A stretch of 64,000 nucleotides of DNA from Schmidtea polychroa (Eukaryota), in contig CM097887.1 of the NCBI GenBank assembly GCA_044892525.1, positions 117,840,397 to 117,904,396 of the forward strand, given 5' to 3'. The position numbers and the translations under genes were made by a program. The notes beneath the pieces are model-generated. The model was given only the letters and a program-made list of their open reading frames with translations. It had not been told where the DNA came from and ran no database searches. Shown in pieces: positions 35,191 to 64,000 of this stretch (the stretch's first letter is position 1; every line of letters begins with the position of its first letter).

Positions 35191-35911
35191 AATTCCAAAA
35201 TCGCAATCTCATTGGACAACGCAAAAGGCGAAATCAACATGATTTGCTATCAGAATGAGAAACAGATTCAAAGGTTTTGTGATTCAGTATTGAAAATCAA
35301 TTTTCTTTTCACTGAAGATTTAGAGAAAATTGATAAATTATTTGAAAAATCAATTTTAGATATTGAAAACAACGATTTAATTTACAACTACGCACCGAAT
35401 GTTATGGGAAATGCGAATGATATTTTAAGTTATATAATATTGTTGTGTTGGGCCAAGCTCCGAAGGTGTTGGAAAAGCGAACCGAAGAAGGGATAGAGTA
35501 AAATAAAATAAAAACATATAAAAAATACGAGAAACATAAGAGGAAACAAATTAAATATCCAGCAAAGAAATTAGAAAAACTAAATAAAATAACAAAACCT
35601 CTAAAGGAAAAATAAGACAAGAGGGAAGGCACCTAATAAACGACAGTAAAAGAAAAAATAAAATAGCAGAAAATCTAAGAAAAATGAAGAAAAACAAAAT
35701 AAAAAATCATCCATAAGGCTAATTAAAACAAAAAAAAAATGAAGTTACAATAAAATAGCAACAAAACCACAGGAAAAACAGATAAAATAATAAAAAATAG
35801 GAAAATAAATAAAATAATAATAAAAATAGGAAAAAGTCATTAAAATACACCTGATTACATTAAAAAACATAAAAATTATAATAAACAATAATATTACATG
35901 CAAGTCGCGCC

Positions 35912-35938
35912 CTGATTGGACGAAAAGTAATATATAAA
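35912..35938 (+). promoter_or_regulatory. candidate LTR promoter (inverted CCAAT plus TATA)
   Basis: CTGATTGG followed by TATATAAA at 35931-35938, after an A-rich U3-like stretch. Repeated in the 3' LTR (~62157-62183). Confidence 0.45.
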
Positions 35939-38206
35939 GAGCGACAAAAATCTGTAGAGTATCATTCTAACCCGAAACTCTACAGGAAAACTAGGAACAA
36001 TTCACAAGCACAGATTATTGAACCATATTCATTCATCGGATAACATATACCTTTAACGGAGATCGAATTCAGTTCAGTCGAACGAGTCTATCTAAAGAAA
36101 ACTTATATTATTTTGATCTAACACCTTTCGGAGATTTTTGGTAAATTATGTTTTAGATTTTAGCATGATGATTTAAATATTTATTATGAATTTAAAAAGT
36201 CGTTTATAATTCAATAAATTTCATATTTTAAACAAAGGTGTTGCTTTCTCTCTATGATGCTGGCGACGGCGTCCTCTGGAATCCGGGTATGATGCAGTTG
36301 AGTTTTTCGAACGTCCTACGGAGAGGAAATTTACGAATACGAACTCGAGAAATTGAAGTGATAGAACCAGCCCAGGATCCATATGAATTTAGAAACTAAA
36401 GTGATTACTTAATGAATACGAGATTTATGCTAACCAGAGTCATCATGCCCGGATTTCAAATGTCGTGGTCGCCAGGTGAACATTTATTTAATTGATTTTC
36501 TCATAATTCCATTATTTCTATATTGATTTACTAAATAATTAAATTGTATTATTGCACATTTGTTGAGAATGGAGTTGCGATGTGACGGGTCGAGTCGTCC
36601 TTCACACCGGTCCAAGAGCAGTGGGCAGAGATGCGTACTGCCTTGGGTGGGTTGTGAGGAGCGAGGAAACCATGCGAGATGTAACAAATCAAGTAAAGAA
36701 TTCTTTCATCGAGTGTAATCCAACCATCTTAGTCGTCGAAAACCATCCATTGTAGAAACTTCTGAGTGACATAGTTTGAGACAACGATACCTTGGGAACT
36801 CCCAGAGGCATACCATTAGATCTATCATCAGCCTTGTATCCGATCACGTCATCAATAATCTTTGATTTAGGGCCTTATTCGTCTTGCATTGAGAGAAGTG
36901 CCTGTTAGAACGTCTGTCGGAAGGAGTTATTAATTTCGAGTTTCTACGAGAGATTCTCTGTACTAAGCCCATTTCGTATCTTACAATCTGAAGGTGCTTT
37001 GGAAGCTACACCGCCGGGAAGTTAGCGAATAGATCCATCGTCTTGCTTATCGTCGACTCCGGGGAAACTTAATCACCAACCGACAACTAGTCGCTGTCAT
37101 CGATAATAGCCGTTTTAGAGATGAGTGTAAACATCTCTGGATAGTAGATTTGAATACTGGCTATGAGCCCGAAGGAAACGGTCGCCAGTGACATTGGGTG
37201 AGCGTAGTAGACTGCCGGGAAATCGGTTGATAAGATATCTGAAGCCTCAGTCACGAGCGAACGAGTTGACCGTTTTTATCTCAAAACCAATTAGTGGAGC
37301 AAAATCTAAATATGGAATCGATCTTATCTAGTAGATTCGCAATTTAACCCACGCAATTAGATTCACGAGTTTTCTATGACCCCCTCTTAGATTTCCACTT
37401 GTCTAGAAACTCAGCCAGCAATGTCATGTCTAGTGTGCAGATAGTAGATAAATTTATCTCACAATTGCGTACTGGTAAAATAGGAGATGGTTAGACTACA
37501 TGTCCAATCCGACAGCGAGATTACGTCATACTGAATAGTAGAATTTCTACCTAGTCCACGAACACAGGCTGACAATAAATCAGACAATGCATGTATACGA
37601 ACAGACCAGACGACATCTGCTAGCCTACATCCAGGGTAAAACTAATACACCACTACTCACAAACAAGCGTCGTTATGACGACATTTATGGCGCAAGATTT
37701 AAGATGATCAAATAGTAAATTTTGATAAGACTTAAATTGAATTTTGTGGTTCTTTTATGAAGCCGATCACGACGTTTAAAACCCCAATAGTCACCAGTCA
37801 TACCGAACTATGCTTTTATGACCCCACGAGTGCGAAATTTTACGAATATAGTAGGGTGGGGAGTGGGAATGCTATTACTAGGGAAGGATAATTATAATAA
37901 ATTCGACTGTGGTAAATTAATAAAAGCACATTACATAAAAATGGCCAATTTCGGAAAATAAACATAAAATCAAAGTTAGGGTAAATGAATTGTTTTTTTT
38001 TTTTGTGGAATTCCGTTTTCTTTTTCTCTATCAGTATGGATGCTTGCAGACAAATGAGTGTGAATGTTGACCAGCGATATGGGTAGGTGGGTCATTGTCG
38101 AGTAGTATGATTGAAAATAGGGTAAAACTTGCAGTCAAAAATTTGGAAACGACACTCCAATGAACTTTTTTAAACTCTACGATTAACAAAACGTCTTGAT
38201 CTTTAG

Positions 38207-38968
38207 ATGCCTGCTTCAACCGCTACGAACAAGGATCTTCGTCCATGCTTCTCCTGCGCAGATAAAACCGCAGACATAGCACAACTCCACTTATATATCG
38301 GGGCACTGAAAAAGAGAATTGATCTCTATGAAGGCACGTGGTTCTCCCCGCCACAGATGAAGGAGGAGCGCAGTAAAATTCTTCGGTTGGAACATTGCCG
38401 GGACAGCCTCCTAGAGGAGAGTCGCTGTCAAAGACTGACGATCAAGGCGCAATCGGAAGCCCTCCACAAGGTCTACACGGAGGCAGAATTGGCCAAACGG
38501 GTACGAGAATTTCCCGTCTTGGAGGCCAGTAATGTTTTTCCAATTCACCACCAAAGTACTTCCACCGCTACAACCAGTTGTCTGGGGCACGGCTCCTATC
38601 TGCCGCCTGTTCCAGCACCGGCCTTATATAGTTATCAGCCGCCGGTAGGTGGTCCATCCGCCCCTATCTTGGCTCCAGTTTTAGTGACATCAGTTACAGC
38701 ACCCGATGCGGACAACCATCAACCACAGCGTAAAAGAAAACGGCCGACCCGAGCCGCCAAAAATCAAAGACGTCGAGATGCAATCGCGGCTCTTGAGGCG
38801 TCGTTATCTGTGGCTAAGTCTTCTCTGGAGAAGTTATCGTCACTACCCTCTACCCCCACCAAGGAGATATTCCGGGTGATCTCGCCCGAAGGGGTCCAGC
38901 TCGTGCGAGACCGTCGGTTACCGGTCGACATCGACGAGATGATCGCCGAAGGGGAAGTTTTCCCATAA
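38207..38968 (+). CDS. 253-aa ORF inside the LTR; N-terminal helical/coiled-coil, Pro-rich middle, basic patch (RKRKRPTR); function unknown
   Basis: Long GC-richer ORF within the inferred LTR, with a pyrimidine-rich splice acceptor upstream (TTTTCTCTATCAG, ~38034). Confidence 0.6.
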   Translation: MPASTATNKDLRPCFSCADKTADIAQLHLYIGALKKRIDLYEGTWFSPPQMKEERSKILRLEHCRDSLLEESRCQRLTIKAQSEALHKVYTEAELAKRVREFPVLEASNVFPIHHQSTSTATTSCLGHGSYLPPVPAPALYSYQPPVGGPSAPILAPVLVTSVTAPDADNHQPQRKRKRPTRAAKNQRRRDAIAALEASLSVAKSSLEKLSSLPSTPTKEIFRVISPEGVQLVRDRRLPVDIDEMIAEGEVFP

Positions 38969-39507
38969 TTGGACGTGTCGTTGACCCATCTCTCATTCCA
39001 CGCGATCAAGCTCGACAATCTCTATAAATGACTTAGATGATGCGTGTTTTGTACTCTCCTACGTGTTGTGATCGGAAATTTGTGTTCATATGTATCTTCA
39101 ATTTCATTAATATAATCATAGTGTTCGTTGTGTTGTCCTGTAAAAGTTATAGAGTGATGAGTTATGACTGGATAAATGAATTGGAATGACCATTGGAGAA
39201 TGTGGGTCGTCCCCTTGGACCAGGGTCGTACCAAGAATGCATGACGAGTATGGGTAAGACCTTCTTAGGCACCGGGGAACCTGAACTGAGAGTGGGTCCG
39301 TAGTAGTCCTAAGGCAGGGGCTCACCTGCGGATCAACTCCGACCCGTGTGAGCAGCACCAACGTGGGTAGATCATCACGGGCTCACATGAGGGAATATTT
39401 GTAAATCATGCGGGTTATGTGGGGGAAGGGCCCCGAGCTAAAAGAACATGATGCCAGCCGCACTACGTATGTCCGTTTGACTCCTCCCATATACCCAACA
39501 TGATTTT

Positions 39508-40007: not shown

Positions 40008-40487
40008 ATGTCGGAAGCTAGAAAACATCTACAACAACTAAGCAGATTCATCGACATAGAAAACGATTCCCTAAAGACGTTAAGAGAAAAACTGCAACAA
40101 ATAGAGACCCTAGTACAACAACGCCACGATGCACCTCTGATATCAAAACAAAATTATTTAACCAATAAACTGGGAGCAACAAACACCGATACCGACTTGT
40201 CTACCCATTACCAATGGATGCAGAAACGACTCGACGACCCCGCTCTGAACATCGAATATGTGAGAATACGCGAACAAGTAAAAACTTTGTCTCAGAGAAT
40301 ACGAACATCGATAGTAGAGAAAGCAGCGGCCTTAAGAACTTGTAACATTTGTAAGACGCGACCTGCCAAAATTCTAATTCTACCTTGTGGACACCTTAGC
40401 CATTGTGACGAATGTGCCGTCGGTTTAACGCATTGTTCTCTATGTGTATGTGTGATAAAGGAGAAGCACACGATTTACTTCAGTTAG
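40008..40487 (+). CDS. coiled-coil plus C-terminal IAP/MDM-type RING finger (no BIR domain)
   Basis: CNICKTRPAKILILPCGHLSHCDECAVGLTHCSLCVCVIKEKHTIYFS: C3HC4 RING with an IAP-like aromatic tail. T-tract plus AG acceptor 2 nt before the ATG. Confidence 0.85.
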   Translation: MSEARKHLQQLSRFIDIENDSLKTLREKLQQIETLVQQRHDAPLISKQNYLTNKLGATNTDTDLSTHYQWMQKRLDDPALNIEYVRIREQVKTLSQRIRTSIVEKAAALRTCNICKTRPAKILILPCGHLSHCDECAVGLTHCSLCVCVIKEKHTIYFS

Positions 40488-42417: not shown

Positions 42418-42782
42418 CCGTAGAAAGATCCACGTGAAAAGACAGAAAAGAGTAAGAAAGAATCACGGATAAACCCAACCTTAGATCTTCAAGTAAGCCA
42501 GGAGACGTATTATTTTCAGGAGACGAATTAGATCAACTCAAAAGAGGACGATCATTTAGGCAGCAGAGAGGAATATCACAAGGAGCAAAAAGACCCCACA
42601 AAACACCGATATACGATCAAGAAAACCCCACAGCCGGACATACGCCCAGTCGATCTAGAAGTAGAGAAAGCCTATCCGATATAACAAACAACCTAACCGG
42701 GTCAACAGAAGAATTATCCGTCCATAGTTTAGCTACATCGCTGGAGAATTTAAAAGGAATAATAGAGTTCCAAGAACCAATC

Positions 42783-45700
42783 ATGACGAATGTGGTAAAA
42801 ACCGACGAATATAAAGAAAAATTTAGAGGCGAACCATTCAACGGGAATGCGAACAAGTTGACGACGTTCATAACAAATTTTGAAGTCTATATCGATGTGT
42901 GTGGATGGACATCAGAAGCAATTAGCAAACGGATGCCGTTGTTTTTATGTGATAGCGCATTAGAAGTGTATCTAGAAGCAAAAGAAAGAAATACGAAGTT
43001 AGACAATTGGGAAAGCATCAAAACATTTTTGAGAAAAACATTCGGAGCCAGCAAACCAATAAATCAAGCCCTAGGAGAATTAGCGAGTAGAAAACAAAGA
43101 GCAAATGAATCCATAACGTTGTATGCGAGTGAATTGCGAAGATTGGCAAAGAAGGCCATGAACGGAAACTTGCCGGAGGAAAATTTAATTGGTTATTTCA
43201 TAGAAGGACTGCGCCGAGAAGAGGTAAGGGCCTCGGTGGGATGTCAAATGTGTAAAACACTAGAGGAAGCCATAGATTGGGCCACGAGATGCGAACTCCA
43301 CCTCCCGGCACAAATGAATGTCATGCAAGAGGAAGGAAGAATCGCAACAGCAACGGTAAAAACTGAAAATGGAGAGAACAGCAATCATGAACCAAAAATG
43401 AATCAGTTTATACCCGGTGCGCATCAAATTTTCAAACCACCGCAAGGACGATCAAATGGGAATAACAGTGAACGCAACAACCCGAACAATGGGAATAATT
43501 TTAATAATCGACGAAACACGAACGATAACAAACAATGCCGAACATGCGGTAAACCAGGACATTGGGATAGAGATTGTTACCGAAACGCAAATTGCAATAG
43601 GTGTGGACGACGAGGACACACGGAAAATATATGCCAATTGAGAGGATGTTTTAACTGCGGTCAACCAGGTCATATCTCAAGAGACTGTCGAGAAAGGAGC
43701 CAACAACAACGACCACCACAACGAAATAATAACTATGCACCAAATCCGCAACGACAAAGTAATCCTAGTGAGGGAAAGCAAATGAATGTGATGCAAGAAA
43801 TTTCACAAATGAAGCAGATGATGCAACAAATGATGAGACCGAGACAAGAACCAGTAGCACAACAAACTCAGAATATACGTATGATGAGGAGCACCGAGAA
43901 TCTTAACAACTATGAAGTGCAACAACATGCACAAGAATGGCAAAGACTACAAGCTGAAGAAGAGAGGATAAAAAGAGAGCGAATTCAGCAGCGACAAGAA
44001 CAACCATTACGAATAAATATGATGAGAATGGTAAGGGAGATAAAAGAGCAATATTGTTACAATTACGGTAAAAATCCAAGAGTTGTACCTATGAGCGAAC
44101 CAGAGAAACCGAAAGAAACAATTCCAGCAACAAAAAAGGAAAATTCAACAACATCGCTAAAAGGAAATCAGAGAATTCAGAAAATATTTTGGAAAAAGAT
44201 AAAAGATAAAATCGAAAGAGAAAATGAGAAAACGAAAACAGAAGCAGAAGCAGAAAATAACGAAAATGAAAAACAGAGTAATCATCTAAATCATGATATG
44301 ATACGAGAATTAGACTCAGAGGAGCTAACGATACTCGAGAACAAAAAATTAAAGAAAGTACCAAGAATGAGAAATTTACGAATTAATATGATGAGGACAA
44401 CAAAGAAGGTGTTGTCAACAGATGACGATGAGGATTATGTGAGTAGCCTTGGTGGAGAAATGTTACAGTTAAATGAAAATATCGACCAACTCAGAGAAAA
44501 GATCGGAGCAGATGAGGATGAAAGTGAAAGCGACGTGACAAGCGAAAGCGAAGACGAGAATATCGAAATAAAATTGAGAAAAGAAAGAGAAGAAGCAATA
44601 AAACAAGTAAAGGAAATACTTCCAGTGGTGGTAAGAAACCAGGAATTCATTGACATCATACCATACAGACGCTTCACACAAAGGATAATGAAACTAGAAA
44701 GAAACGAAAAAGATCTAATACCAAACGAGGAAAAAGCGATAATAAAGAAGTATATGGAAAAAATGAAACAAGCGGAGACAACACGCTATGTAATAAAAAT
44801 CGGAACAAGCAAAGGACTCGAGAGAATATGGATAAAAAATGCAGTTACAGACGATCTTTTCGATTGGATAAGAGAACATTTGGGCAGCTCGAGAAAGAAA
44901 GAATACCTGTATCAATATCAAGGAGAACAAATCAAACCAGACATGCACCTAATAGATGCATTGATCTGGCCAGGAGAAACTCAAATATTGAAATTGCATA
45001 AAGAGAAGCAACCAGCGAATATTCACGAATGGGCTAAAGACGCCAAGGCCGAGTATGACTTTAACATCAAGCTGAAGCTGGAACAAATAAAACAATGCAC
45101 CTTGCGACGAAATCTAGATAAATTAATCAAACAAATCCAAGAACAAGTTGAAGATAACTGGGATTTGCTCATAACAAGACGAACTGCAGACATGCATGAA
45201 CTAATGAGCCGACTGCGAGATACAGAACTGCTCAGGATGAGCGATTGGAGAACCATAAATTTGATCCACAAATACGGAAGATTAAAGGAAACGCAACCGC
45301 AGAAATTAGAAATAACCATATGGTTACCAAATGAGGAGAAACGACGAATAAAGATGAGTAATCAGAGTACGGTGGATGACTTAGTAACCAAGATAAACCA
45401 AGAGATAACGGAAAAAGTACGAAGCGAGAGCAGCGATGGTATGATAGATGACGTAGTCATGATGTACGATAAAATAATACTACGGGCTGAAGACGATACC
45501 TCGTTAAGTGAAACGGGAATGTGGGATAATCATCAGATCATCAGAATATTGCCCATGGACGAATTCCGAACAAGAGATGTAACATACCAGAAAGAAATAC
45601 GAGACCGGATGAAAACGCTATACCAAAAATCAGTAGAGATAATCGAAATTTATCAACAATGGCTGAAAGAAAAAGAGCTTCAAGGAAAATTAAAGAAACT

Positions 45701-47708
45701 GAGTACCAGATCCTGCAGACGAACCCCATGGGAAAGGATGTGGAATGCGGAAAACAAAGAATGGGAAATCAGGAAAGGGATTTTCGTGGAAACAGACATT
45801 CGTGAGATAGAAAGCGAATCAGAAGAAGAGGAAGATGAACCTCCAAAATACGAAGAGGACGAAATAGAATCGACATCGAACGACGAAAGCGAAACGGATG
45901 TTACATCAGAAAGTGAAACGGAAACCAGGCATATTCATGCGATGAGAAAGAAGGAACGCGAATACGCCGACATAGACGGGGAAGAGGCAAAAGAAGCGAG
46001 AGAACGAGAAGAGAAGGAAAGGTATAAACAATTAGGTGATATCTTAGCAATGGGAGCAAAAAATCAAAAACGTCAAGTAATAACATTGGCTAACATCATC
46101 CTAAAGACATCAGAGAATATCCACAATCTAAGAGAAATGGCGAAAGCGATTGAAGAATACCGACAATATAACGAATGGTACCCAGAACAGCTAGAACAAA
46201 TTATTAGGAAATGGAGAAACCAAGAATGGGCACAAGATACCCAGGAAAGGTATCGTATCCGAGTCAAGTATCCCGACAAAAGCATTGAGGATATAGAAGT
46301 ACATCCAACAACAAAGATCAGAGAGTTAAAAAAGAAATTAGCATACGAAACTCCATTTCACCTACAACTATTCGGAAAATCGTTGGACGATAATGCAGAT
46401 GTCGGAATAACACCCATGAGATTGGGGGAGATCAATGTATTGACAATGGCAGAAACATTGGGAAAACCGATTAAAAGGAAGAGCAAATCCAGTAAACCTA
46501 CGAAAGGTAGCTTGAGTACACCAAGCCCTAACAAAGTGGCGAGTAAATCGAATGAAACCGAGGAAATCGAGGAAATTATATTGGAAGACAGCGATGAAGG
46601 AGCGGGAGAAAGATCACCAATTCTGGTAAGATGGCCGACCGGAGCCGAAATATGGACAACGAGCCAACCGTCAACTAGCTATCAACAACCACATAAACTG
46701 AACATAGAGGAAATTATCGATAATACAACAGAAACCGAAACTGACGAACAATTCCAACGACAGAAAGGACCAACGAAAGCAACACCGGAAGGCCAAACGG
46801 ACAAAATAATAGAAGAATGGAACGAATGGCTGAGAAACAACGATAGCTCATTGCCCAGAACAGATAATGAGAGAAACCCGAAGTATGAAACGACAAGAGA
46901 AGCCGGAACAATGATGGAAAAACGGGCAAAAGGAAGACCTAGGAAGCAAGGAGAAAAACCAGAATTCAAAACTAGAAAACAACTGAAACAAGAACAAGGA
47001 CAAGTCAGATTAGAGAAACTGGATAAAATAGTGTGGGATCTAAAAGAGGCCCAGCCAACAATCGAAAGAGGCGAAAAATGGATACGAGAGCTAGTAAAAG
47101 ATATGCTAATAATAACGAACACACAATTGCGACGGTTATGGCAACGAAAAGTAGCAAGCGTAGATGCCAGACAGCTATGGAATACAATATCCGGAATAAT
47201 TCCGAAATTAATCAAAGAGAAGACAAAAACCACTAAAACCGATTGGGAAGAGACAAGAAGAGTAATTGAACAATTAACTTTAAACGCAAACGACGACGAA
47301 CATCATTTAGTAGTATTAACGTATCTAATGTACAATTTGATGGGAGTAGCAGCAAGGAAAATACCTAACAAACAATTCGCAAATCATGTAGAAATGACCG
47401 TTACAATCATTGAAAATACAATCGAACCACATATTATCCGCGCCGGTGGGTGGAAAAGACTCATACAAGCACCACGAAAAAACGAGCAAGAGAGATCAAT
47501 GCAAATTCGGTTGAAGAAATTACTAAACGAGCTAGAATGGGAATTGCCATTGAAAGACCCAGCCAGCAGAAAAGCGTCGATTAATTCACTAATGATGACC
47601 ATGATGATATGGATGCTCTGCACCAGTGGAGCCGCGGGATTTACTATTTACGACTGTGACAATTCGATAATAGGAGAAAGATACTCCCTGAGAGATATAG
47701 AGGAATGA
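42783..47708 (+). CDS. gag: extended Gag: capsid, 3 CCHC knuckles, 3 ubiquitin-like domains, AT-hook, Bcl-2-like domain, env signal peptide
   Basis: Capsid-like FNGNANKLTTFITNFE...MPLFLCDSALEVY; CRTCGKPGHWDRDC, CNRCGRRGHTENIC, CFNCGQPGHISRDC; KGRPRK; RELVKDML...HIIRAGGW. Ends in the hydrophobic LMMTMMIWMLCTSGAAG followed by FTIYDC. Confidence 0.9.
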   Translation: MTNVVKTDEYKEKFRGEPFNGNANKLTTFITNFEVYIDVCGWTSEAISKRMPLFLCDSALEVYLEAKERNTKLDNWESIKTFLRKTFGASKPINQALGELASRKQRANESITLYASELRRLAKKAMNGNLPEENLIGYFIEGLRREEVRASVGCQMCKTLEEAIDWATRCELHLPAQMNVMQEEGRIATATVKTENGENSNHEPKMNQFIPGAHQIFKPPQGRSNGNNSERNNPNNGNNFNNRRNTNDNKQCRTCGKPGHWDRDCYRNANCNRCGRRGHTENICQLRGCFNCGQPGHISRDCRERSQQQRPPQRNNNYAPNPQRQSNPSEGKQMNVMQEISQMKQMMQQMMRPRQEPVAQQTQNIRMMRSTENLNNYEVQQHAQEWQRLQAEEERIKRERIQQRQEQPLRINMMRMVREIKEQYCYNYGKNPRVVPMSEPEKPKETIPATKKENSTTSLKGNQRIQKIFWKKIKDKIERENEKTKTEAEAENNENEKQSNHLNHDMIRELDSEELTILENKKLKKVPRMRNLRINMMRTTKKVLSTDDDEDYVSSLGGEMLQLNENIDQLREKIGADEDESESDVTSESEDENIEIKLRKEREEAIKQVKEILPVVVRNQEFIDIIPYRRFTQRIMKLERNEKDLIPNEEKAIIKKYMEKMKQAETTRYVIKIGTSKGLERIWIKNAVTDDLFDWIREHLGSSRKKEYLYQYQGEQIKPDMHLIDALIWPGETQILKLHKEKQPANIHEWAKDAKAEYDFNIKLKLEQIKQCTLRRNLDKLIKQIQEQVEDNWDLLITRRTADMHELMSRLRDTELLRMSDWRTINLIHKYGRLKETQPQKLEITIWLPNEEKRRIKMSNQSTVDDLVTKINQEITEKVRSESSDGMIDDVVMMYDKIILRAEDDTSLSETGMWDNHQIIRILPMDEFRTRDVTYQKEIRDRMKTLYQKSVEIIEIYQQWLKEKELQGKLKKLSTRSCRRTPWERMWNAENKEWEIRKGIFVETDIREIESESEEEEDEPPKYEEDEIESTSNDESETDVTSESETETRHIHAMRKKEREYADIDGEEAKEAREREEKERYKQLGDILAMGAKNQKRQVITLANIILKTSENIHNLREMAKAIEEYRQYNEWYPEQLEQIIRKWRNQEWAQDTQERYRIRVKYPDKSIEDIEVHPTTKIRELKKKLAYETPFHLQLFGKSLDDNADVGITPMRLGEINVLTMAETLGKPIKRKSKSSKPTKGSLSTPSPNKVASKSNETEEIEEIILEDSDEGAGERSPILVRWPTGAEIWTTSQPSTSYQQPHKLNIEEIIDNTTETETDEQFQRQKGPTKATPEGQTDKIIEEWNEWLRNNDSSLPRTDNERNPKYETTREAGTMMEKRAKGRPRKQGEKPEFKTRKQLKQEQGQVRLEKLDKIVWDLKEAQPTIERGEKWIRELVKDMLIITNTQLRRLWQRKVASVDARQLWNTISGIIPKLIKEKTKTTKTDWEETRRVIEQLTLNANDDEHHLVVLTYLMYNLMGVAARKIPNKQFANHVEMTVTIIENTIEPHIIRAGGWKRLIQAPRKNEQERSMQIRLKKLLNELEWELPLKDPASRKASINSLMMTMMIWMLCTSGAAGFTIYDCDNSIIGERYSLRDIEE

Positions 47709-49480
47709 GACAGGCATCTCCGAATAAATTAGATATAGTAAAAAAGAAAGTCTCCTATCACGTATACCAAGAATCAGATTTCATTAGAACACAAGCTAGA
47801 GAATGCGTAGTATCGAAGAAAGTGTTGGCATATTACTGTGGACAATACTCATATTCAACCCTTATATTACCGGGATTAGATAAAGAAATAGTACCTATAC
47901 AACGGGAAGACTGTAAAGAACTTTTTAGAACCGGAGCGATGAGAATCAGGGATGGAGTAACAATACACGGACAAAGCGGAATGATCAAGACGGAAAGTAT
48001 CTATGTAGCCGGACGAGTAAAATCAACTGATGGATCATGTAACGGAGGCACATATACGATCAGAGGAGAAGTGATCTCGGGAGTAGTAGTAATTGAGTCC
48101 TACACAGTGGAGTTGAAGGAATACGAAGCACAATTCGACGCAAACAACTATCAAATGAAAACCAACCCAGCATGCAGAGCTACGGAAAACGTGTGTAGAA
48201 CGGGAATTTCGACTATAATATATGAAGCTAACACCCAAAAATGCCGACTGCAATTGTTAAAAAGTGCTCTATTCAATGAAGTAAAAGGAGAAATTTACGA
48301 AAACGAGGATGACGATGAAGAGAATGGAAACGTAAGGATGCGAAATGGGAAACCAGTCCCACCATCCCCCAAAGAAAAGAGACTCACAACCCAAAAAACA
48401 CCAACGGCATTAATTACAGATGATCCAGACGTCGGCATGAGATTCATTAGAGAAAAAGAGACCACCAAATGTGACAGCATAGTATATCGGACGAACTACG
48501 CAGGTATCTACATGTCAAGGCAAGTAATAGACCGAGCAGTGGGAAAGGTAGCAACAGAGGACGTAAAATTGTACCTGTACGCTAATAACAAAATGGACTT
48601 TTTATTTCATCGAGGACAAACGACAATGCAAAAAGTGTATTACGATCTTATACAAAATGACTGTTCATTGAATAAAGAGATACTAAAAACAAAATTAGCT
48701 ATCGCAATAACACACCCAGATAACACAATGCCATCACTCCCGTTACCGGATGGACATTTTGGTAGAATGGTGGGAGAGGTAATGTATACATATGCATGTA
48801 CCAAGACATTTGCGCGACTGCCAAGAAAGCCCACAATTCCACCAGGGAAATGTGCAAACGAATTAGAAATTAGCTACAAAGGGCGGAACAGATTCGTTCA
48901 ACCAGTCACTTGAATTATGAACCCAATTGGATTTTATCCGAACATCTTTAACTGTTCAAATGCATACGGACCGTTATATGAAAAACCCGATGGGAAATGG
49001 ATAATGTTACCGGTAAAAACCGAAGTACAAGAACCTAAAAAGTTTGGATTAATAGAACTCGCAACAGAGCAAGATTTCAAACCAATTGATGTGTCAAAAG
49101 CAGGTATGTACTCACCAGAGGATTTAGAAACAGCACGACTAAACGTACTATTCCCAGCAAGGCGAGAATCCATTCTATCAAATATGGTTACCATAACTGG
49201 GGGAACGAATTTCCAGTCAGGCCCCAATTACGAACTATTATTGTCACCCGATCATTTTCAACAAGCCACGTCGAACATGATGAAAGCAATGTGGGGAAGA
49301 TTTCTAGTGTTCGGTCAAATGATGGCAGGAATATTGGGAATCATCTTAATTATTCAGATCGTCAGGGTGATATTGACTCAAATGTTAGCGTGTTTTGATA
49401 TCTATAAGAGAGAAAAGAAAGTAAATTGGAAGTTGATAGTAGGTTTTCTACCATTTTTGGCAAAAACAATGGTGTTGCAC
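47577..49480 (+). CDS. env: chuvirus-like (class III, gB-related) envelope glycoprotein, split by a 1-nt deletion (~47708) and a TGA (48911-48913)
   Basis: Signal peptide 47577-47639, then YDC...YSL.D...C, ECVVSKKVLAYYCG, GSCNGG, NDCSLNKEIL, GEVMYTYAC, CANELEI...FVQPVT(R)IM, LFPARRE, then a TM segment ~49300-49390. This Cys pattern matches Jingchuvirales G as I recall it. Confidence 0.85.
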
Positions 49481-49959
49481 GGTCATTCTAAAGACATACA
49501 TAGAATAAAACGATTAATCAAAATACTGACAAAAATAAAAGGGACTGACGAGGAGGTCGGTAGACGATTTCGGAAAACAATGTATGATGAGGCAACGAGA
49601 GCGCAACTGAAAAAGAACAAACCAAAATTCCTGGACAGATTTAGAAATCGGTCAAACAGCAGCGATAGCGATGATGACGACAACGGGAATGACAAATACC
49701 CATATCCAAGTAGAAACCCGAATGAAAAGCCAATAGAAACAGCGCCATATTGGGAGAAAGAAAAAACAAATACCTGGATAGCCAACGGAAGTTACATACC
49801 ACCGGATATCGTTGGACAACAAACAGCTTTGACCATGACACAAAATATGTATCCACAGTTACCAAGTCAACCAGGGATGAACTATATGCCAACCCGAAGA
49901 ACGAAAAGCGTAGACCAAGCGGATGACGTAAGAACGATAGCAGTGATGAGTTCACCAGG

Positions 49960-52900
49960 AGGCGCGGCAGTAACAGTCATGATCCAAATCAACGGGAAAG
50001 AGACAAGCGCAATGATAGATACCGGAGCAAATGTATCAGCAATAGCAATCAACCAAATACCCAGTAAATGTTGGAAAGACATCGAACAAACAACTATCCA
50101 TATCATCGCATGCAGTAAAGAAACCGTAGACGTAGTAGGAAGATGGTGGACTACGTTAAGATATCAAGATAACGAAATTGAAACGTATCTAGCGGTGATA
50201 CCCAAACTGAGTGAACCATGTATAATCGGAACGGATTTAATGCCGGAATTGTTCAAGGAAGTAGTAATCGATTTAACAACAATGTGTCTAAAAGACAAAA
50301 CGGGTAGAATATGCAAGATGAACGCAATAATTAGATGTCCGGAGAAAATAATTGTACCAGCAAAATCACAAATGATATGTCAAATAAAAGTGGATGCAGG
50401 AATGGAAGGAGAAGTCATTTTTGAGCCAAGCAAATCATTCGAAAAACGACGAGAATTACCATTAGCAAGAGAAATAATAACAATAAATGAAGACGGTGAA
50501 ATACCAATCAACATCACAAATTTCGAGGAAGAAGATAAAATCATATATGAAAATGAAAGATTGGGTAGATTGACACCCATGATAGACATCGAATTACCAA
50601 AAATCACCAACGAAACAACGAAAGCCGACGAATTATGGATAATTGACAGCACCCTGCTAACGGAAAAAGAAAAGGAAAGACTTCAACAATTATTGATAGA
50701 ATATAAAGATATATTCGCAATTTCGGATTTAGATTTGGGAGCATGCGACGTTACATTACACGCAATACCATTAATAGACGAAACTCCAATCGCACTACGT
50801 CCATACAAACTAGCCGAGAAGCAAAAAGAGATAGCCGAAGCAGAAGTACAAAAAATGCTAGATGCACAAGTGATCGAACCAAGTTGTTCGCCATGGCAAT
50901 TTCCAGTAGTCATGGTGAAGAAAAAAGATGGTACTCAGAGATTCTGTATCGATTATCGGAAATTAAATGCAGTAACAAAAAGAGACACATACCCGTTACC
51001 AGACATCAATGAGATGTTACTTATGTTACAGGGGGCCGCATATTTTACATCTTTAGATCTGAAAAGCGGATATTGGCAGATCAAAGTCAAGGAGGAAGAC
51101 AAAGAGAAAACAGCATTCACATTGGGTCGAGATCTATACCAATTCAGGAAAATGCCGTTCGGACTGACCAATGCCCCAGCATCATTCCAGAGATGTATGA
51201 ATTTTGTCACACATGGGATCAAGCAGTGTATGGTATATATTGATGATTTATTAATATATTCAGCAACATTCGAACAACATTTGGAAGATATCAGAAACGT
51301 GTTCGTTCGATTACGACAATGGAAATTGAAACTCAAACCATCAAAGTGTGATTGGGCAAAAGAGAAAGTTACGTTCTTAGGACACATAGTGTCAGCAAAA
51401 GGCAAAGAACCAGATCCAAGAAACATAGAAAAAATAAAAACATGTCCAGCACCAAAAAATGTCACCCAAGTTCAAGAATTTCTCGGATTATGCGGATATT
51501 ATCGAAAATTCATCAAAAACTATGCAGGTATTGCGAAACCAATACAGGACTTAGTGAAAAAGGATATTTCATTTATTTGGGGTGCAGAACAACAAAAAGC
51601 ATTTGAGACATTGCGAGATAAATTAATTGAAGCTCCGATACTAGTACATCCTGATTTCAAGAAACCGTTCTTATTGGCAACAGATGCAAGTGGATATGCA
51701 GCCGGAGCGATATTAGGACAACTGGATGAAGAGGGAAAAGAAAGAGTGATTGGATACTACAATAGAACGTTTAAAAAGCACGAGAAAAACTATTCCGTAA
51801 CCGAGAGAGAAGCGTTAGCAATCATACAAGCGATTAAACATTTTCGATATTTGTTATGGGGACACGAAATATGTATCACAACAGATCACCAACCATTAGT
51901 ATGGCTTGGTCAACACAAAGAAGCTTCAAGTAGATTGATGCGATGGGCAATGCAGTTACAAGAATATTCACCGTTCATAAAATTCAAAGCGGGAAGAGCG
52001 AATGCCAATGCGGATTGTATGTCCAGATTTATCTTTCCAGATTTAGTAGATCACGAAATGCAACGAATATGTCTGATGGTAGCAGAAGATTTAGATTTTT
52101 GCCAATTACGGAAAGACCAACAGGAGGATACAGAGTTGAAACAAATCATTGAATATGTGAAAACAGGGAAAGCAGAGGTATATGAGAAAGATCAAAAATT
52201 GAAGGAGCATATGGATAAACATCGACATCGATATATTATCGAGAAAGACTGGTTGTTGATAATGGATGGAGAAAAAAGACTGATGTGCATTCCCGAGAAT
52301 AGACGTAAAGAGCTGCTAACACAATACCATGACGGAAGACTCGGAGGACATATGTCATCTAAAAAGACGTTGGCACGAATGAAACAAAAGTATTTTTGGC
52401 CTACATTGACCGAGGATGTAACGGAATGGGTGAAAAATTGCATAACTTGCGCAACCAGAAAAAACACGGGAACAAAATGAAAGGCACCATTAAAGCCAAT
52501 GCCAGTACCAGCAGAACCAATGACCATGATATCAATGGACGTGGTCGGTCCACTACCAGAATCAGATAGAGGAAATATATATATATTGGTAATCACAGAC
52601 TATTTGACGAAATTCCCCGAAGCATTCGCTATGGCAGATCAGAAAGCAAGAACAATCGCAAAAATACTAGTAGAGGAGATATGCTGTCGATATGGAACAC
52701 CAAAACAGATATTAACTGATCAAGGAACAAATTTCATGAGCGAAATAATGAGCGAAGTCACCAACTACTTCAAGATCGCAAAATTAAGAACATCACCGTA
52801 CCATCCACAAACTAATGGTATGACGGAAAGATTCAATGGAACACTGATTCAAATGTTATCAAATTATGTCGATCGTCATCAACGCGATTGGGACGAGTAT

Positions 52901-53370
52901 ATAAAATTATGTTTAATGGCTTACAGAATGTCGATTCACGCGTCCACAAAGATGAGTCCGTTCAAGTTGATGTACGGCAGAGAATGCAATATGCCAATGG
53001 ATTTGGAGTATCAGCCACCAATATCACAGTACATGGAAATAGACGATTATGTAACCAAGTTCAAGGAAAGAATGCAGGAAATCTGGGAAACTGCAGGATT
53101 GAATATAAAATTTTATCAGGAAAGTTACAAAGATCTACATGATAGAAAGAAAAACGTCAAACAGCATACGTTTCAAACAGGCGATTGGGTGATGATCGAA
53201 ACACCAGAATTAATTCCAGGAACCACCAAAAAATTACAACGAAACGGTAAAGGTCCGTATGAGATTCTATTCATCGGAGAAACCAATGTGAGAGTACGAT
53301 TAGTAAACAATCCCTTCACGAGGCCAATATATGTAAATGTGGCACGATGTAAGCCAATACCGAAAACAGC
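49960..53370 (+). CDS. pol: pol: aspartic protease, reverse transcriptase, RNase H, integrase with GPY/F module; in-frame TGA at 52478-52480
   Basis: IDTGA (DTG at 50018); RFCIDYRKLN, YFTSLDLKSGYWQI, MPFGLTNAPASFQ, YIDD (51236); TDASG, EREALA, TDHQPL; HHCC (52328-52449); MDVVGP, TDQGTNF, NGMTERFN; GPY at 53252. Confidence 0.97.
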
Positions 53371-53439
53371 CACCAGCCAGCCGGAAGGGAGAACATTAAC
53401 AACAAGATCACAAACGTATAGAATAAATATGTTACAGCA

Positions 53440-56400
53440 GATAAACGAACCAACAGGTAACCGATTGGGGTTACAACCATCAGAAGCCGAGAAAATCATA
53501 AAAGAAGTGAAAGCTAAAATGCCCGGATGGGCAGAAGACAGATTAGATTTTGAGATATTGGGAGGTCTGCTAACAATGATCGAAAATTATGCAAACCGAG
53601 AAAGAACACACCCATTACTCAGGGTAGTAAAAAGTCAATGGCCTATATTATTTACGATCACAGACCATTATGGAGATACACCGCTGCACAAACTTTTAAA
53701 GGTCGGGAATAATGAACAAATACTGGAAACGATCGAAGCATTTCGCGATTGTAACGTTTCAACAGATCAAGAAAATAACCAAGGTTACACTCCACTAATG
53801 ATAGCAGCCAATCGGGATAAAGCTAAAGATATTATCATCGCATTACTTGAAACTGGGTCAAAGATAACTACACAAGACCACAACCAGAAAAATGCACTAC
53901 ATCATGCAATCGAAGGGAAAAGTACGGAAGCCTTCATAATCTTAGTAGACCTATTATCATATGAGGATAATAGGGAGATAGGAAACATGTATGACGGGTT
54001 ATTAACTGCAATCAAAGAGAAATTAATAACAATTACTGGAATACTAATTGCATGGAGGAACCCGATCAAAAACGATTATATGGTAGATATAAACGAAACA
54101 TTTACCAAAGGAGAAAATACCTTGATGAGGGAAGCGATGAGAGGACATCACCTATTCGAAATTCCAAATCAACTACTACAACGTGGCATAAAATTTTCAA
54201 ATCACAAAGACGAACAACTAATCAGAAAACGAATTACCAACTTCGAAAAAGCTATATCTCAATTTACCGATAAAGTACAAGTAAAATTTTGGGAAACCGT
54301 GAGTGTATTATATATGATGGAAACTATGAACAACATTCGAGAAAACTACCTAAGTATTATTCAAGTGCTTACGGCGGAAGAACGCATTAACAGTTCAAAC
54401 AAGAAAAAGATAAAAATAAAGAAAGTAAAAACAAGAGAGTCTGAGGAACAAGTCGATCAAATAATAACCGATATAGCAACAACAAGTAAACCAAAGATAA
54501 TAAACTCAGACCAGGAGATAATAATACGCAAAGCCAAAGAGGTGTTCTTTGAAGAAATGCAAGATCTATCCGATAAAGCGATACTAGCAAAAATAGCAAA
54601 AACAGTACACACCTACGCAAGAGACCAGACCACAAATCTAGACATAGAAAAAATAAAAACATTTATACCACTAGCATTCACCTTACCAACAAAAGACTCA
54701 AGAACACCATTACAACAAGCCATTTTAGCAGCAAAAGAAAACAGAGCAATAACCATCATAAGAATCCTTGGAGACTTCGGAGAAGAATCTAATGCAAAAA
54801 ATGAACAAGGAGAAACAGCAATGATGTATGCAGCCATAACAAATATACGCCCGAAAACATTACATATACTACATCGATCGGGATCAAGACTGGACGAAAT
54901 ATCAAACGAAGGAAATTCTACCATGGATTGGGCAACCATACAACCAAACTTGGAAATGATTAGGTTCATTTGTAAAAATGCTACAAGAACTGAGGTAGAA
55001 AATATCTGTAAAAACACGTCACAGTTCCAATGGAACACGATACGGATGAACTTAGAAGCCATGAAGTTATTGCTAACATGGAAAATACCGCAAAGCAATA
55101 AATATGCAATAAATATAAATGAGTTCTACGAAAACGGAGAAAATGCTATGGTTAAAAATACACTAACAAAAGGAGGAACTCCGAAAATCATAATGATCGT
55201 ATTGAACAGAGAAGACCTCAAATTCACGCAAAATCTAAACGAACAAAAGCGGACCGGAAAACATCGCCGTATACAATTGAGAGAACTGGTAAAAGAATGG
55301 AATAGAAAGAGACATGTAGCAACAGGCAGAAAGGAGTTCGAATTCGAAGCAAAATTAGCAAGGAATAGAGTGTTAACGGCATATCACAGATTATTGAACG
55401 ACATAAATGTCGAGGACGACATTTCAAACGATAGCGGGGGAGATAAAGACGACAAAGACGACGATAATAATGAACAAGGTCGAAACGGGAATGGAGAGAA
55501 AGAGAAATCAGAGGAAAATAATCAAGGAAATAACGACTCAGGTATAAAAAAGGAGGAAAATAAACCGGGAAGCCGAACAAAGGAAGAGGAAAAGACGAAT
55601 AATGGGAAACAGAGGGTATGCCCACTTTTTACCAACAAGGAAATGGAGACAAATATGATGGTAATGATACTCATACTAACAATGATAGAAATGATAACAG
55701 CCCACGGTGGAATGGGAACGATAAAAGAGGCCAAGGAAACGGAAAACAAAGACAACAAGGAGAAGGAACTAAAGCAGGAAAAGAAGAAGCAAGTACGAGA
55801 GCAACAATGGGATTTAAAAGAAGAATGGGATCTAAAAGAAAGGTGCATACTAGGAAGATGTATGTCGAGAGCATATCGGAGACTAGTATTAATAAATGAA
55901 GATACAGAACTGATAACGGAAGTAAGAATTCAAGAAGCATATCGGAATCGAGACGGGAAGAGAATAACTAAAGTCAAAGGGAAGGAGGTACACCTGAGAA
56001 AAGGAGGTGAGGTAGTGATAACGCAACTCCAGCCAAGAAAAGAACACAAAGTCTGCATTTCAAGATTAGGACCGGGTGAAGACTGTCTACAATATGTAAC
56101 ACAGCAACAACCTCCAAAAGAATACACAGTATGCATCTGGAGAAACGATACAGCGAGAGAATGTCGACGATACCCTGGGAAAAGAGGGAGGAAAAGAAAA
56201 ATCAATGACGAAAAAGATGAGCAAGGAAAACGCAAGAAAACCGATGAGAAATATCAAGACAATTATGTATCCGAGGAGGAGATGGAGAAAATACAAAGAA
56301 TGGCAAAGGAAGGTATGAACGAGGAAATAGCAAGAATACGAGGAATGATAAAAGGAAATGGCAAAGACGGTAATCTAAAAAACACGGAAGCAATATCAAC

Positions 56401-56656
56401 AATAACGAACAAGGAAAAAGCAGAAATTATAGGCGTAAAACAGATGATGTGGATCAGCGGCATAATAATAACAGGGGCCTTTTTAATCATAACGGGGGGG
56501 ACAATAAAAATAATCAAAGATAGGCGGCATCGCGGAGAACTAGAAATGGCCAGAATAAGAAATTTTCAACATCGTGTAAGACGACCAAGTAATATCAAGC
56601 AGGAACAATGGGTGGAGGCCTGGAATGCTCAGCGCCCTCCAAGCTCACGTATATAG
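53440..56656 (+). CDS. C-terminal extension of the integrase ORF: two ankyrin-repeat modules, then an internal signal peptide, an ectodomain and a TM segment
   Basis: GDTPLH, GYTPLMIAA, QKNALHHA (53670-53960); SRTPLQQA, GETAMMYAA, GNSTMDWA (54700-54975); METNMMVMILILTMIEMITAHG (55643); TM MMWISGIIITGAFLIITGG (56444). Confidence 0.8.
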
Positions 56657-56800: not shown

Positions 56801-57184
56801 TTGAAAAGTATATATAAATTAAGAATGGAACGAATAGGCGAGGAAGTAAATCACAGTACGACAACCGAGGAGATGTGGAAACAACAATGTGCAATGTTAA
56901 CTCAAGTGATTTCGAATTTACAGGAACAAGGACTCGCTGTACAAAGAAGCTTAGTCGAAAGTTTAAATAAAGGCTTCAGTTATGTAAGAATAATCGAAGA
57001 CCAACGAATAAAAATAGAACAAATGCAGCGAGAGATAGACCGAATATCACGATACAGCCAGGTGCAAGAAGAGGAGTTAATAAGAATCGCGGAAGAGATG
57101 GAGCGAGAGGAGATAGAAGACTGGTCAGAATGGTTAACCAGCAGGGAGGAGGGCGGACAAGAGGCCGACTCCTCCAGCCAATAA
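56801..57184 (+). CDS. accessory coiled-coil ORF (likely ATG at 56825)
   Basis: Intact helical, charged ORF bounded by AT-rich spacers. Confidence 0.55.
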   Translation: MKSIYKLRMERIGEEVNHSTTTEEMWKQQCAMLTQVISNLQEQGLAVQRSLVESLNKGFSYVRIIEDQRIKIEQMQREIDRISRYSQVQEEELIRIAEEMEREEIEDWSEWLTSREEGGQEADSSSQ

Positions 57185-57273
57185 ATATAACCTAAAATAG
57201 CAATGTAAATAACTGTAAATAAAAATACGAAACTGTACCAGTAACAAATATATGTATATATATAATTATAGAA

Positions 57274-58640
57274 ATGGATAAGCAACAACGAGAGGAATTC
57301 AAAGAAATTGTTGAACAAGTCAGAAAGTCCACCACAATTCGAATACACAACCATGTAACGTGTGGAATATGCAAGAACTTATTAAGAGAACCTCACCAAA
57401 CCAGATGTGGATGCAGAATGTGCAGAGAATGTGTAGAGGAGGTAATAAAGAAGGGACCACAATGGTGCCCAGTATGCAAAGAAACAATGATAACAAGTTT
57501 GGGAGATACAAACGAAGATAAAGCAGCTGTAAAAGATATGATGAATGCAAACCTAGGATGCAAAAACACCCCATGTAATTGGCGAGGAGTGATATGGGAA
57601 GTGAGGCAACATATGGAGCAATGTGAATATAAAATCAGTCAATGCAAACGTTGCCAAGAAGAGATTAAAGTCAATGAAGAAGCAGAACATCAAAGTCGAT
57701 GCGAAGAAAGACTGGAGAAATGTGAGTATTGCGGAGAAACCGACACCTGGAAAAAACTAATCAGTCAACATCACAACATACAAGAGGAGAAAGTGTGCGC
57801 AGAATTCAGAGGAGAATGCCCCAACAAATGCGATAAACCCGGAGTAATAAAACTCGCTCAACATCTGAAAGAATGTGAAAGGAAAAAGATAAGGTGTGTG
57901 TTAGGAAAATGGGGATGTCAGAAACAATTACACCGAGGGGAATTACCCCAACACACGCGGAAATATGGTCAACGGTATTACAAGAAAACGAAAGGAAAAC
58001 CGAAAACTTAGAAAGAGAAATAGTCTCGCTAAAAGCGTTGGTAAAAGAACTATTGGAAGAAAAGGAAGCATTCGAAGAGGCGAGAACAAGCACAAAGATA
58101 CAAACAGATCTAGTAGAAACTAGCAACATTATGGTGAAAGAACTACATCAAAAAGTAAGCGAATTAAACCTCAACGAATTAATACCAACGGCTCCATACA
58201 TATGGAAGATAACGGGAGTAAAAGAGAAGATGCAGAGAGCGAGAAATGGAAAGGATACAACATTACTAAGTCCAGCATTCTACTCATGGAAAAACGGGTA
58301 TAAAATGAAAATGAAAGCATACCCCAATGGGGATGGAAGTGCATACGGAACGCATTTCTCAGTATTCTTCTTGATATGCAAGGGGCTATACGACGAGTTA
58401 ATAGAATGGCCATTCAAAGCAAAAATAGACCTCGCAATGATGAACTATCAAAGTATACATGAACAGAGTTTCCATACAGCGGGAAACCTCGTATGTTACC
58501 AAAGGCCCTTGGAAGAAGAAGGATCAGCAACCGGAGCACCGAACTTCATCCTACAGCGGAAAGTAGAAGACATGACGAAAAACGACACCATATACATAAA
58601 AATAGCGGTGAGGCGAGACGGGAAGAGTAGGACTGAGTAG
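57274..58640 (+). CDS. TRAF: intronless TRAF homolog (RING, TRAF zinc fingers, coiled coil, MATH), frameshifted at ~57950
   Basis: CGICKNLLREPHQTRCGCRMCRECV...CPVC; CKNTPCNWRG...HMEQC; CPNKC; YIWKI...SPAFYS..GYKMKMKAYPNGDG...THFSVFF...YDELIEWPF. The two ORFs join at a CA-repeat slip. Confidence 0.92.
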
Positions 58641-58816
58641 AGAGACGAATAATTTTGTATATATTAAATTGTAAATATCGGTGAATATACCCAGTAAAAT
58701 ATTATATAGTAGTGTAGAAAACCCCAAATATGTTAAGAATAAACTTAAACGGAAAAATTCTAAAAACAACCCACCGATAACGAATTATAAACAATGAATA
58801 AATAACGAATATAAAA

Positions 58817-61691: not shown

Positions 61692-64000
61692 TGTTGGGCC
61701 AAGCTCCGAAGGTGTTGGAAAAGCGAACCGAAGAAGGGATAGAGTAAAATAAAATAAAAACATATAAAAAATACGAGAAACATAAGAGGAAACAAATTAA
61801 ATATCCAGCAAAGAAATTAGAAAAACTAAATAAAATAACAAAACCTCTAAAGGAAAAATAAGACAAGAGGGAAGGCACCTAATAAACGACAGTAAAAGAA
61901 AAAATAAAATAGCAGAAAATCTAAGAAAAATGAAGAAAAACAAAATAAAAAATCATCCATAAGGCTAATTAAAACAAAAAAAAATGAAGTTACAATAAAA
62001 TAGCAACAAAACCACAGGAAAAACAGATAAAATAATAAAAAATAGGAAAATAAATAAAATAATAATAAAAATAGGAAAAAGTCATTAAAATACACCTGAT
62101 TACATTAAAAAACATAAAAATTATAATAAACAATAATATTACATGCAAGTCGCGTCCTGATTGGACGAAAAGTAATATATAAAGAGCGACAAAAATCTGT
62201 AGAGTATCATTCTAACCCGAAACTCTACAGGTAAAATTTTATCCTTTATATCATCATTCTAACCCGAAACTCTACAGGAAAACTAGGAACAATTCACAAG
62301 CACAGATTATTGAACCATATTCATTCATCGGATAACATATACCTTTAACGGAGATCGAATTCAGTTCAGTCGAACGAGTCTATCTAAAGAAAACTTATAT
62401 TATTTTGATCTAACACCTTTCGGAGATTTTTGGTAAATTATGTTTTAGATTTTAGCATGATGATTTAAATATTTATTATGAATTTAAAAAGTCGTTTATA
62501 ATTCAATAAATTTCATATTTTAAACAAAGGTGTTGCTTTCTCTCTATGATGCTGGCGACGGCGTCCTCTGGAATCCGGGTATGATGCAGTTGAGTTTTTC
62601 GAACGTCCTACGGAGAGGAAATTTACGAATACGAACTCGAGAAATTGAAGTGATAGAACCAGCCCAGGATCCATATGAATTTAGAAACTAAAGTGATTAC
62701 TTAATGAATACGAGATTTATGCTAACCAGAGTCATCATGCCCGGATTTCAAATGTCGTGGTCGCCAGGTGAACATTTATTTAATTGATTTTCTCATAATT
62801 CCATTATTTCTATATTGATTTACTAAATAATTAAATTGTATTATTGCACATTTGTTGAGAATGGAGTTGCGATGTGACGGGTCGAGTCGTCCTTCACACC
62901 GGTCCAAGAGCAGTGGGCAGAGATGCGTACTGCCTTGGGTGGGTTGTGAGGAGCGAGGAAACCATGCGAGATGTAACAAATCAAGTAAAGAATTCTTTCA
63001 TCGAGTGTAATCCAACCATCTTAGTCGTCGAAAACCATCCATTGTAGAAACTTCTGAGTGACATAGTTTGAGACAACGATACCTTGGGAACTCCCAGAGG
63101 CATACCATTAGATCTATCATCAGCCTTGTATCCGATCACGTCATCAATAATCTTTGATTTAGGGCCTTATTCGTCTTGCATTGAGAGAAGTGCCTGTTAG
63201 AACGTCTGTCGGAAGGAGTTATTAATTTCGAGTTTCTACGAGAGATTCTCTGTACTAAGCCCATTTCGTATCTTACAATCTGAAGGTGCTTTGGAAGCTA
63301 CACCGCCGGGAAGTTAGCGAATAGATCCATCGTCTTGCTTATCGTCGACTCCGGGGAAACTTAATCACCAACCGACAACTAGTCGCTGTCATCGATAATA
63401 GCCGTTTTAGAGATGAGTGTAAACATCTCTGGATAGTAGATTTGAATACTGGCTATGAGCCCGAAGGAAACGGTCGCCAGTGACATTGGGTGAGCGTAGT
63501 AGACTGCCGGGAAATCGGTTGATAAGATATCTGAAGCCTCAGTCACGAGCGAACGAGTTGACCGTTTTTATCTCAAAACCAATTAGTGGAGCAAAATCTA
63601 AATATGGAATCGATCTTATCTAGTAGATTCGCAATTTAACCCACGCAATTAGATTCACGAGTTTTCTATGACCCCCTCTTAGATTTCCACTTGTCTAGAA
63701 ACTCAGCCAGCAATGTCATGTCTAGTGTGCAGATAGTAGATAAATTTATCTCACAATTGCGTACTGGTAAAATAGGAGATGGTTAGACTACATGTCCAAT
63801 CCGACAGCGAGATTACGTCATACTGAATAGTAGAATTTCTACCTAGTCCACGAACACAGGCTGACAATAAATCAGACAATGCATGTATACGAACAGACCA
63901 GACGACATCTGCTAGCCTACATCCAGGGTAAAACTAATACACCACTACTCACAAACAAGCGTCGTTATGACGACATTTATGGCGCAAGATTTAAGATGAT
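61692..64000 (+). repeat. 3' LTR (truncated by the window end; predicted end ~65,790)
   Basis: Near-identical to 35446-37708. Differences seen by eye: one C/T substitution (35908 vs ~62155), one A-run length change, and a 47-nt insertion (62231-62277). Confidence 0.95.

Follow-up and report, generated by a model that had tools for sequence, protein, structure and literature searches.

The window, which is the whole stretch of 64,000 nucleotides of Schmidtea polychroa DNA analysed here, carries a TRAF gene inside a giant LTR retroelement. We hold it rather probable that the full-length TRAF is a fixed accessory gene of a giant Burro-type family under purifying selection, likely captured once and long ago from the planarian host TRAF lineage, and likely serving the element as a ubiquitin-ligase adaptor; where the element is active in a cell, this protein would dampen host signalling of death or immunity. 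The copy in the window is broken.

Organization of the element

The element around the TRAF gene is 30.3 kb long, with LTRs of 4,055 bp and a 4-bp target duplication (Table 1), and the gene lies between the two LTRs, as originally predicted. By its anatomy it is a Burro-type giant LTR retroelement, an assignment made against the published description. The fusion glycoprotein of the polyprotein is of Monjiviricetes type.

Table 1. Features of the LTR element and of its TRAF gene, in window coordinates.
Feature	Position	Strand	Remarks
5' LTR	35446..39500	+	4,055 bp; TG...CA ends; 4-bp target duplication
Upstream accessory ORF	40008..40487	+	coiled region and IAP-type RING (zf-C3HC4_3); no BIR found
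Polyprotein	42456..56656	+	gag, fusion glycoprotein (env), protease, RT, RNase H, integrase, ankyrin
Accessory ORF C, 119 aa	56825..57184	+	immediately 5' of TRAF, likewise in two other families; dN/dS 0.10
Spacer from ORF C to TRAF ATG, 89 nt	57185..57273	+	doubled TGTAAATA, AATAAA, AG abutting ATG
TRAF gene	57274..58640	+	frameshifted here; 462 codons in intact sister copies
RING finger	57361..57477	+	Cys replaces the usual His, likewise in host TRAFs
TRAF-type zinc fingers (bounds approximate)	57559..57948	+	
22-nt deletion site	57949..57953	+	private to the window copy
Coiled coil	57954..58163	+	out of frame in the window copy; helix 232–304 predicted in a sister copy
MATH/TRAF-C domain	58197..58610	+	out of frame in the window copy
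Three further accessory ORFs	58817–59893, 60067–60768, 60824–61348	+	without Pfam match
3' LTR	61692..64000	+	extends about 1.8 kb past the window end; about 99.9% identity to the 5' LTR

The LTR contains a GC-rich ORF of 253 aa (38207–38968), identical in both LTRs and without Pfam match. After the 5' LTR come a short spacer and a primer-binding-like stretch (39501–39530), which we take to resemble a tRNA-Pro primer-binding site; no clear polypurine tract was seen ahead of the 3' LTR (61660–61691). The leader of the element holds a 72-bp tandem repeat (41144–41376). Elsewhere, the window includes the relic of a second, unrelated Monjiviricetes-type fusion glycoprotein (18103–19589; 29–35% identity to the env of the element) and, in its host part, an ORF with a FLYWCH zinc finger (20621–21076) and a kinase exon (16544–16873). 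No tRNA was found in the window.

The polyprotein of the window element is broken by a frameshift near 47708 and by stops at 48911 and 52478, lesions that are absent from all sister stretches covering the respective sites (16, 16 and 17 of 20). The frame from env to the tail, broken in the window copy, is open in 10 of 20 sister stretches. The window element has four private disabling lesions despite its nearly identical LTRs, diverges by 1.3–1.6% from each of five near copies and carries 23 codon changes of its own over about 10 kb, 15 of them synonymous. It probably arose recently, by recombination from a defective parent. Downstream of the TRAF gene (58700–60150), 14 of 29 copies are only 77–82% identical, though the TRAF itself is about 96% identical; judged from this divergence, there is recombination between subfamilies in the accessory region.

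The TRAF gene and its copy in the window

The original prediction described a complete, intronless gene with RING, zinc fingers, coiled coil and MATH. All four parts are present and no intron interrupts them, but the gene is not complete: near 57949 the window copy lacks 22 nt that every aligned sister copy has (29 of 29), and its frame ends at codon 246, ahead of the coiled coil and the MATH domain. The RING lies in the frame 57223–58011 (Pfam zf-C3HC4, E 3e-5) and the MATH domain in an overlapping one, 57879–58640 (PF21355, E 1e-25). Because the deletion shifts the frame, this copy could yield only a RING–zinc finger fragment, and it is probably a dead end. The junction left by the deletion is found at a single place in the assembly, with 5 nt of microhomology. 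A check of this frameshift in reads had been proposed. In contigs of public runs, loose ends occur at 57947–57953, as expected where their form differs from that of the window, and none among the records listed bridges the deletion form, which thus stands without confirmation in reads.

Membership in the TRAF family was evident from all domains. The MATH domain of the element TRAF matches PF21355 (E 2.8e-25), its RING matches PF00097 with 23 bits against a cut-off of 21, and its zinc fingers match the N-terminal regions of TRAF6 and TRAF5 (E 2e-14 and 1e-12). The Pfam zf-TRAF model passes in the TRAF of family B, described below, and fails in that of family A, to which the window belongs.

Copy number, selection and other element families

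A 25-mer of the MATH domain has 83 exact matches in the assembly, and its reversed control none. Among the 40 of 370 candidates that were scored in a DNA search, 36 besides the window were full length, with 89–98% identity. Element flanks were present on both sides in all 29 top copies. Twenty further loci were taken across the match list; in 19 of them, integrase, ankyrin and ORF C precede the TRAF, and the other is cut upstream and retains ORF D downstream. Element linkage was found, therefore, in 49 of 49 loci checked of the 82 besides the window, and none of these 49 is a solo or domesticated TRAF copy. The 462-codon frame is open in 25 of the 29 top copies, whose selection by score favours intact ones, and in 15 of the 20 further loci, where this bias is lower (40/49 altogether).

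The 25 open copies gave a pairwise dN/dS of 0.146 (0.10–0.23 by codon bootstrap of pN/pS), and the 15 further open copies one of 0.13; such pairwise values share history, so they are not independent. By domain, the 25 open copies gave 0.26 for the RING, 0.10 for the zinc fingers, 0.07 for the coiled coil and 0.24 for MATH. When all 29 copies were used, the two halves of the TRAF showed 0.15 and 0.13, and the shifted-frame controls 0.56–1.75. The values for the rest of the element were 0.02 (env), 0.03 (RT), 0.04 (integrase) and 0.13 (ankyrin); the constraint on the TRAF equals that on the ankyrin region and is weaker than that on the enzymes. The element TRAF is under purifying selection, which means that the protein matters to the element and says nothing of what the protein does. 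The original prediction was to be given up if the TRAF occurred in this copy only and evolved neutrally; because 83 loci and a dN/dS of 0.146 were found, it is neither a one-off nor neutral.

Two other element families, A2 and B, have a full TRAF in the identical slot following ORF C. The TRAF of A2 is about 70% identical to that of family A, with a dN/dS of 0.14 in 13 copies of equal length and of 0.07 between both families. Family B is more distant (69% identity in the RT region, about 33% in the TRAF) and has two TRAF-derived pieces, a MATH domain in a frame of 4,791 codons and a full downstream TRAF of 474 aa with a dN/dS of 0.149 in 18 of 21 copies; in this family a BIR-RING IAP adjoins the TRAF. 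A search with a host TRAF gave 2,115 candidates, and a reading of the list assigned an element-like pattern to 87 of the 94 that were scored. Twenty of these loci were inspected; 19 were of element type, and the one picked as a likely host gene was a host gene. By list pattern, the other families account for about 87 and 80 loci.

Predicted protein, possible role and expression

The AlphaFold model of the protein of a sister copy (pLDDT 92; pTM 0.48, so that domain packing is uncertain) contains a long helix and a TRAF-C fold, the latter closest to TRAF3/1/2 with Foldseek (E about 1e-18). The best PDB matches of MATH plus coiled coil were vertebrate TRAF2/3/5 (E 1e-29 to 1e-24). Serines of the TRAF groove grip receptor tails. 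The MATH groove of the element TRAF is without the serine run of TRAF3, partly kept in host TRAF2-like proteins, and this absence makes ordinary receptor-tail binding doubtful.

In the mechanism that we propose, the captured TRAF would be an active RING adaptor, entering host TRAF/IAP complexes via its coiled coil, and its altered MATH groove would bind other partners. Host death or immune signalling would thereby be shifted, in keeping with the fact that these elements carry IAP- and BCL2-like cargo. Against this reading weighs that no BIR was found among the window ORFs by Pfam search; the same search, which used Pfam only, gave no hit for BCL2-like or ubiquitin-like motifs among these ORFs. 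The TRAF might instead serve the cycle of the element, through ubiquitin-dependent processing, assembly or release of particles or through removal of restriction factors, and not TNFR/TLR-type signalling. Such a role would fit with the RING and zinc fingers being constrained as strongly as MATH, with a groove that differs from those of host TRAF2-like proteins, and with the ubiquitin-like domains and env that passages of PMC6431247 report in Burro polyproteins. However, the whole adaptor architecture is kept, including the coiled coil with its dN/dS of 0.07, and the IAP- and BCL2-like companion cargo reported in the same passages points to death signalling, so we regard a role in the element cycle as rather unlikely.

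Under the preferred reading of an adaptor directed at host signalling, the TRAF would have a processed RNA of its own, made by way of the conserved signals of the spacer, and it would need such an RNA because it lies so far downstream. The spacer layout (doubled motif, AATAAA, AG by the ATG) is shared by all 29 copies and by the three families, and as a sequence pattern it is compatible with splicing or operon-like processing. Passages of PMC12582326 state that operon-like processing occurs in flatworms and use an operon threshold of 300 nt, under which the spacers of 40–180 nt observed here fall.

A TGTAHA motif, usually doubled, lies 14–39 nt past the stop in 14 of 16 spacers from the three families, with 1.5 expected from shuffling; it was chosen from the window, and its presence in 6 of 6 spacers of family B is the independent test. 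The spacers include 56657–56824, 57185–57273, 58641–58816 and 60769–60823 of the window and those of loci L080 and L072. The motif is absent after six host TRAF stops, and it may represent a PUF site or splice donor. In addition, an AG precedes the first ATG in about 12 of 16 spacers, against about 7 expected. A role of the motif as an ordinary host poly(A) helper was discarded, planarian poly(A) sites being without UGUA in the passages of PMC5068929. One low-depth contig, from a run guessed as RNA, terminates in a poly(A) stretch at window position 56769, within the spacer after the polyprotein, and in one family-B copy the spacer motif is closely followed by a long A run; both are weak hints of internal poly(A) sites. 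Contigs of runs guessed as RNA cover the TRAF in one run and, patchily, in two others, which speaks neither for nor against expression. Loss of PIWI leads to transcription of Burro1 in differentiated cells, as described in a part of PMC8532177.

Host TRAFs and origin of the element gene

Ten host TRAF loci (nine and a tenth) span RING to MATH in one open frame. LTR elements usually capture genes by RNA-level recombination, and the lack of introns had been taken as a sign of mRNA capture; this argument does not hold, because ten host loci are likewise intronless and intronlessness is thus uninformative on the route of capture. Five of the intronless host loci, when measured, had host base composition, and six host stretches of 10 kb showed no match to gag, env or integrase and one weak match to RT. 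The Cys at the usual His position of the RING, correctly noticed in the original prediction, occurs in 38 of 39 host RING frames, in 4 of 4 element frames and in 15 database proteins, some of them not planarian. Its interpretation as the sign of a modified decoy was abandoned, and degeneration was ruled out, on account of the 38 host frames; judged from these sequences, Cys-for-His is a lineage trait and not damage.

The nearest named database proteins of the element TRAF are Dendrocoelum and Dugesia TRAFs, and a search for homologous proteins gave only 11 distant matches. Identity to the nearest host TRAFs is about 31–38%. A full-length tree (LG+G4; 66 rows hand-picked from the loci and 150 matches; 420 columns; nine two-exon host genes entered as two blocks) grouped element and planarian rows (96/97), the three downstream element TRAFs (97/81), all four element rows (92/91), the host planarian rows (84/87) and the tandem arrays (100/100). 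The element rows were sister to all sampled planarian Cys-RING TRAFs, and a mixture model gave the same shape. This basal place may be an artefact, because branches are long and two rows are of odd composition. AU tests with 34 rows rejected a grouping of elements with outside TRAF2/3/5-like (p 0.030) or TRAF4-like proteins (p 0.026), and left two groupings unrejected, that of elements and arrays (p 0.21) and that of elements and one host clade (p 0.13). A quick tree of MATH only (164 rows, after six duplicate or partial rows were dropped) was unresolved, with the element rows weakly beside TRAF4-like proteins. The base composition of the element TRAF is A-rich like pol, unlike that of host TRAFs. 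On these sequences, one old capture from the planarian lineage, which would predate the split of the families, is likely the simplest reading, its direction not being proven. Both the tree and the named relatives bear out the earlier suggestion of a planarian host, and equally that of a host origin of the gene.

The arrays bear on the further suggestion that such elements fed the host TRAF expansion. Of 1,551 MATH candidates, the best 150, a top slice and no census, comprised, judged by their scores and frame patterns, 56 host and 94 element loci. The host expansion, as far as sampled, forms clusters on a single contig, with RING and MATH parts mostly separated by introns. Large tandem arrays (G000:C2, 105–124 Mb and 1–5 Mb) combine near-identical RING exons with variable MATH grooves. 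As these arrays form a separate, mostly intron-bearing clade (100/100), the suggestion that elements make up the bulk of the host expansion is not supported, even if the AU test left sisterhood of arrays and elements unrejected (p 0.21). The genome count of MATH-coding loci rises by hundreds through element copies, yet these differ from the host expansion. Planarian transcriptomes contain 121–282 MATH entries according to passages of PMC6109357 and PMC7586133, and genome counts of planarian MATH/TRAF blend element cargo (at least 83 loci in family A) with a separate host expansion. Planarian TRAF-like genes control cell survival (part of PMC7586133), and traf mRNAs undergo piRNA turnover (part of PMC6824462). 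The piRNA-targeted 'traf-6' genes of the latter source were considered as Burro cargo and set aside; five of their gene ids are numerically close in the passages concerned, which fits a host array better.

In a wider reading, Burro elements would be envelope-bearing endogenous viruses of planarians in which captured regulators of death and immunity form an operon-like cassette, and the TRAF of these elements would be as old as the planarian Cys-RING clade or its founder. We consider this improbable; if true, the unusual host TRAF repertoire came from Burro elements or through an arms race with them. It is just as doubtful that the direction was reversed or two-way, an element-borne or retrocopied TRAF having founded the planarian Cys-RING clade or at least the tandem arrays. 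The sister position of the element rows relative to all planarian Cys-RING TRAFs sampled (84/87 on the host side), the ten intronless host loci and the non-rejected grouping with the arrays (AU p 0.21) would agree with it. However, the host loci have host composition and the six 10-kb stretches are nearly without element matches (one weak RT), the arrays carry introns, a nested place among host TRAFs is not rejected either (p 0.13) and was seen in another quick tree, and long-branch pull explains the basal place. Finally, a recent one-off capture of a host mRNA, decaying neutrally, would explain the broken window copy but deserves practically no credence in view of 83 loci, a dN/dS of about 0.15 in three families and about 31–38% identity to the nearest host TRAFs.

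Comparison with known systems

Burro/GYPSM1 elements are giant gypsy-like planarian LTR elements of more than 30 kb (Jurka 2007 and Grohme 2018, as cited in PMC6431247). In the passages of this review they have gag, an in-frame mononegavirus-like env, PR-RT-RH-IN and ankyrin repeats, and a MATH_TRAF_C domain is part of the polyprotein in S. mediterranea and of an accessory ORF in D. tigrina. The elements described here share with them the size, the LTRs, the order of the polyprotein with ankyrins after integrase and the MATH_TRAF_C cargo. They differ in that the cargo of the window family is a whole RING–zinc finger–coiled coil–MATH gene in a downstream accessory ORF, with a polyprotein without MATH, whereas family B has a polyprotein MATH plus a downstream full TRAF. 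In the text of the review, figures apart, the passages name only the MATH domain (PMC6431247), and passages of PMC11410931 mention Burro a single time. No account of a complete, selected RING-to-MATH TRAF accessory gene was found in the literature covered, to which the original Burro papers (Grohme 2018, Jurka 2007) and figures do not belong.

Planarian host TRAFs (Dendrocoelum TRAF-2/-4/-5, Dugesia TRAF2-like A and Smed-TRAF-2A/B of PMC7586133, as given in part of that source) resemble the element TRAF in architecture, length, Cys-for-His RING and frequent lack of introns. In contrast, the element TRAF is about 30% identical to them, is A-rich, has an altered MATH groove and is dispersed within LTR elements. 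With respect to vertebrate TRAF2/3/5, there is no one-to-one orthology, the groove serines are not retained and the element TRAF is shorter. Baculovirus IAPs are host-derived viral modulators of death and immunity. As in that case, a parasite with an envelope gene keeps a captured host signalling gene; here, however, the carrier is an endogenous LTR element and the function is inferred.

A MATH/TRAF domain in Burro, including in an accessory ORF, was thus already known from passages of PMC6431247, and the whole selected TRAF gene is new as far as searched. The known Burro MATH domain becomes a whole adaptor, selected in three families whose TRAFs are 33–70% alike, and the published proposal that Burro interferes with the death and ubiquitin pathways of its host becomes testable via one small gene.
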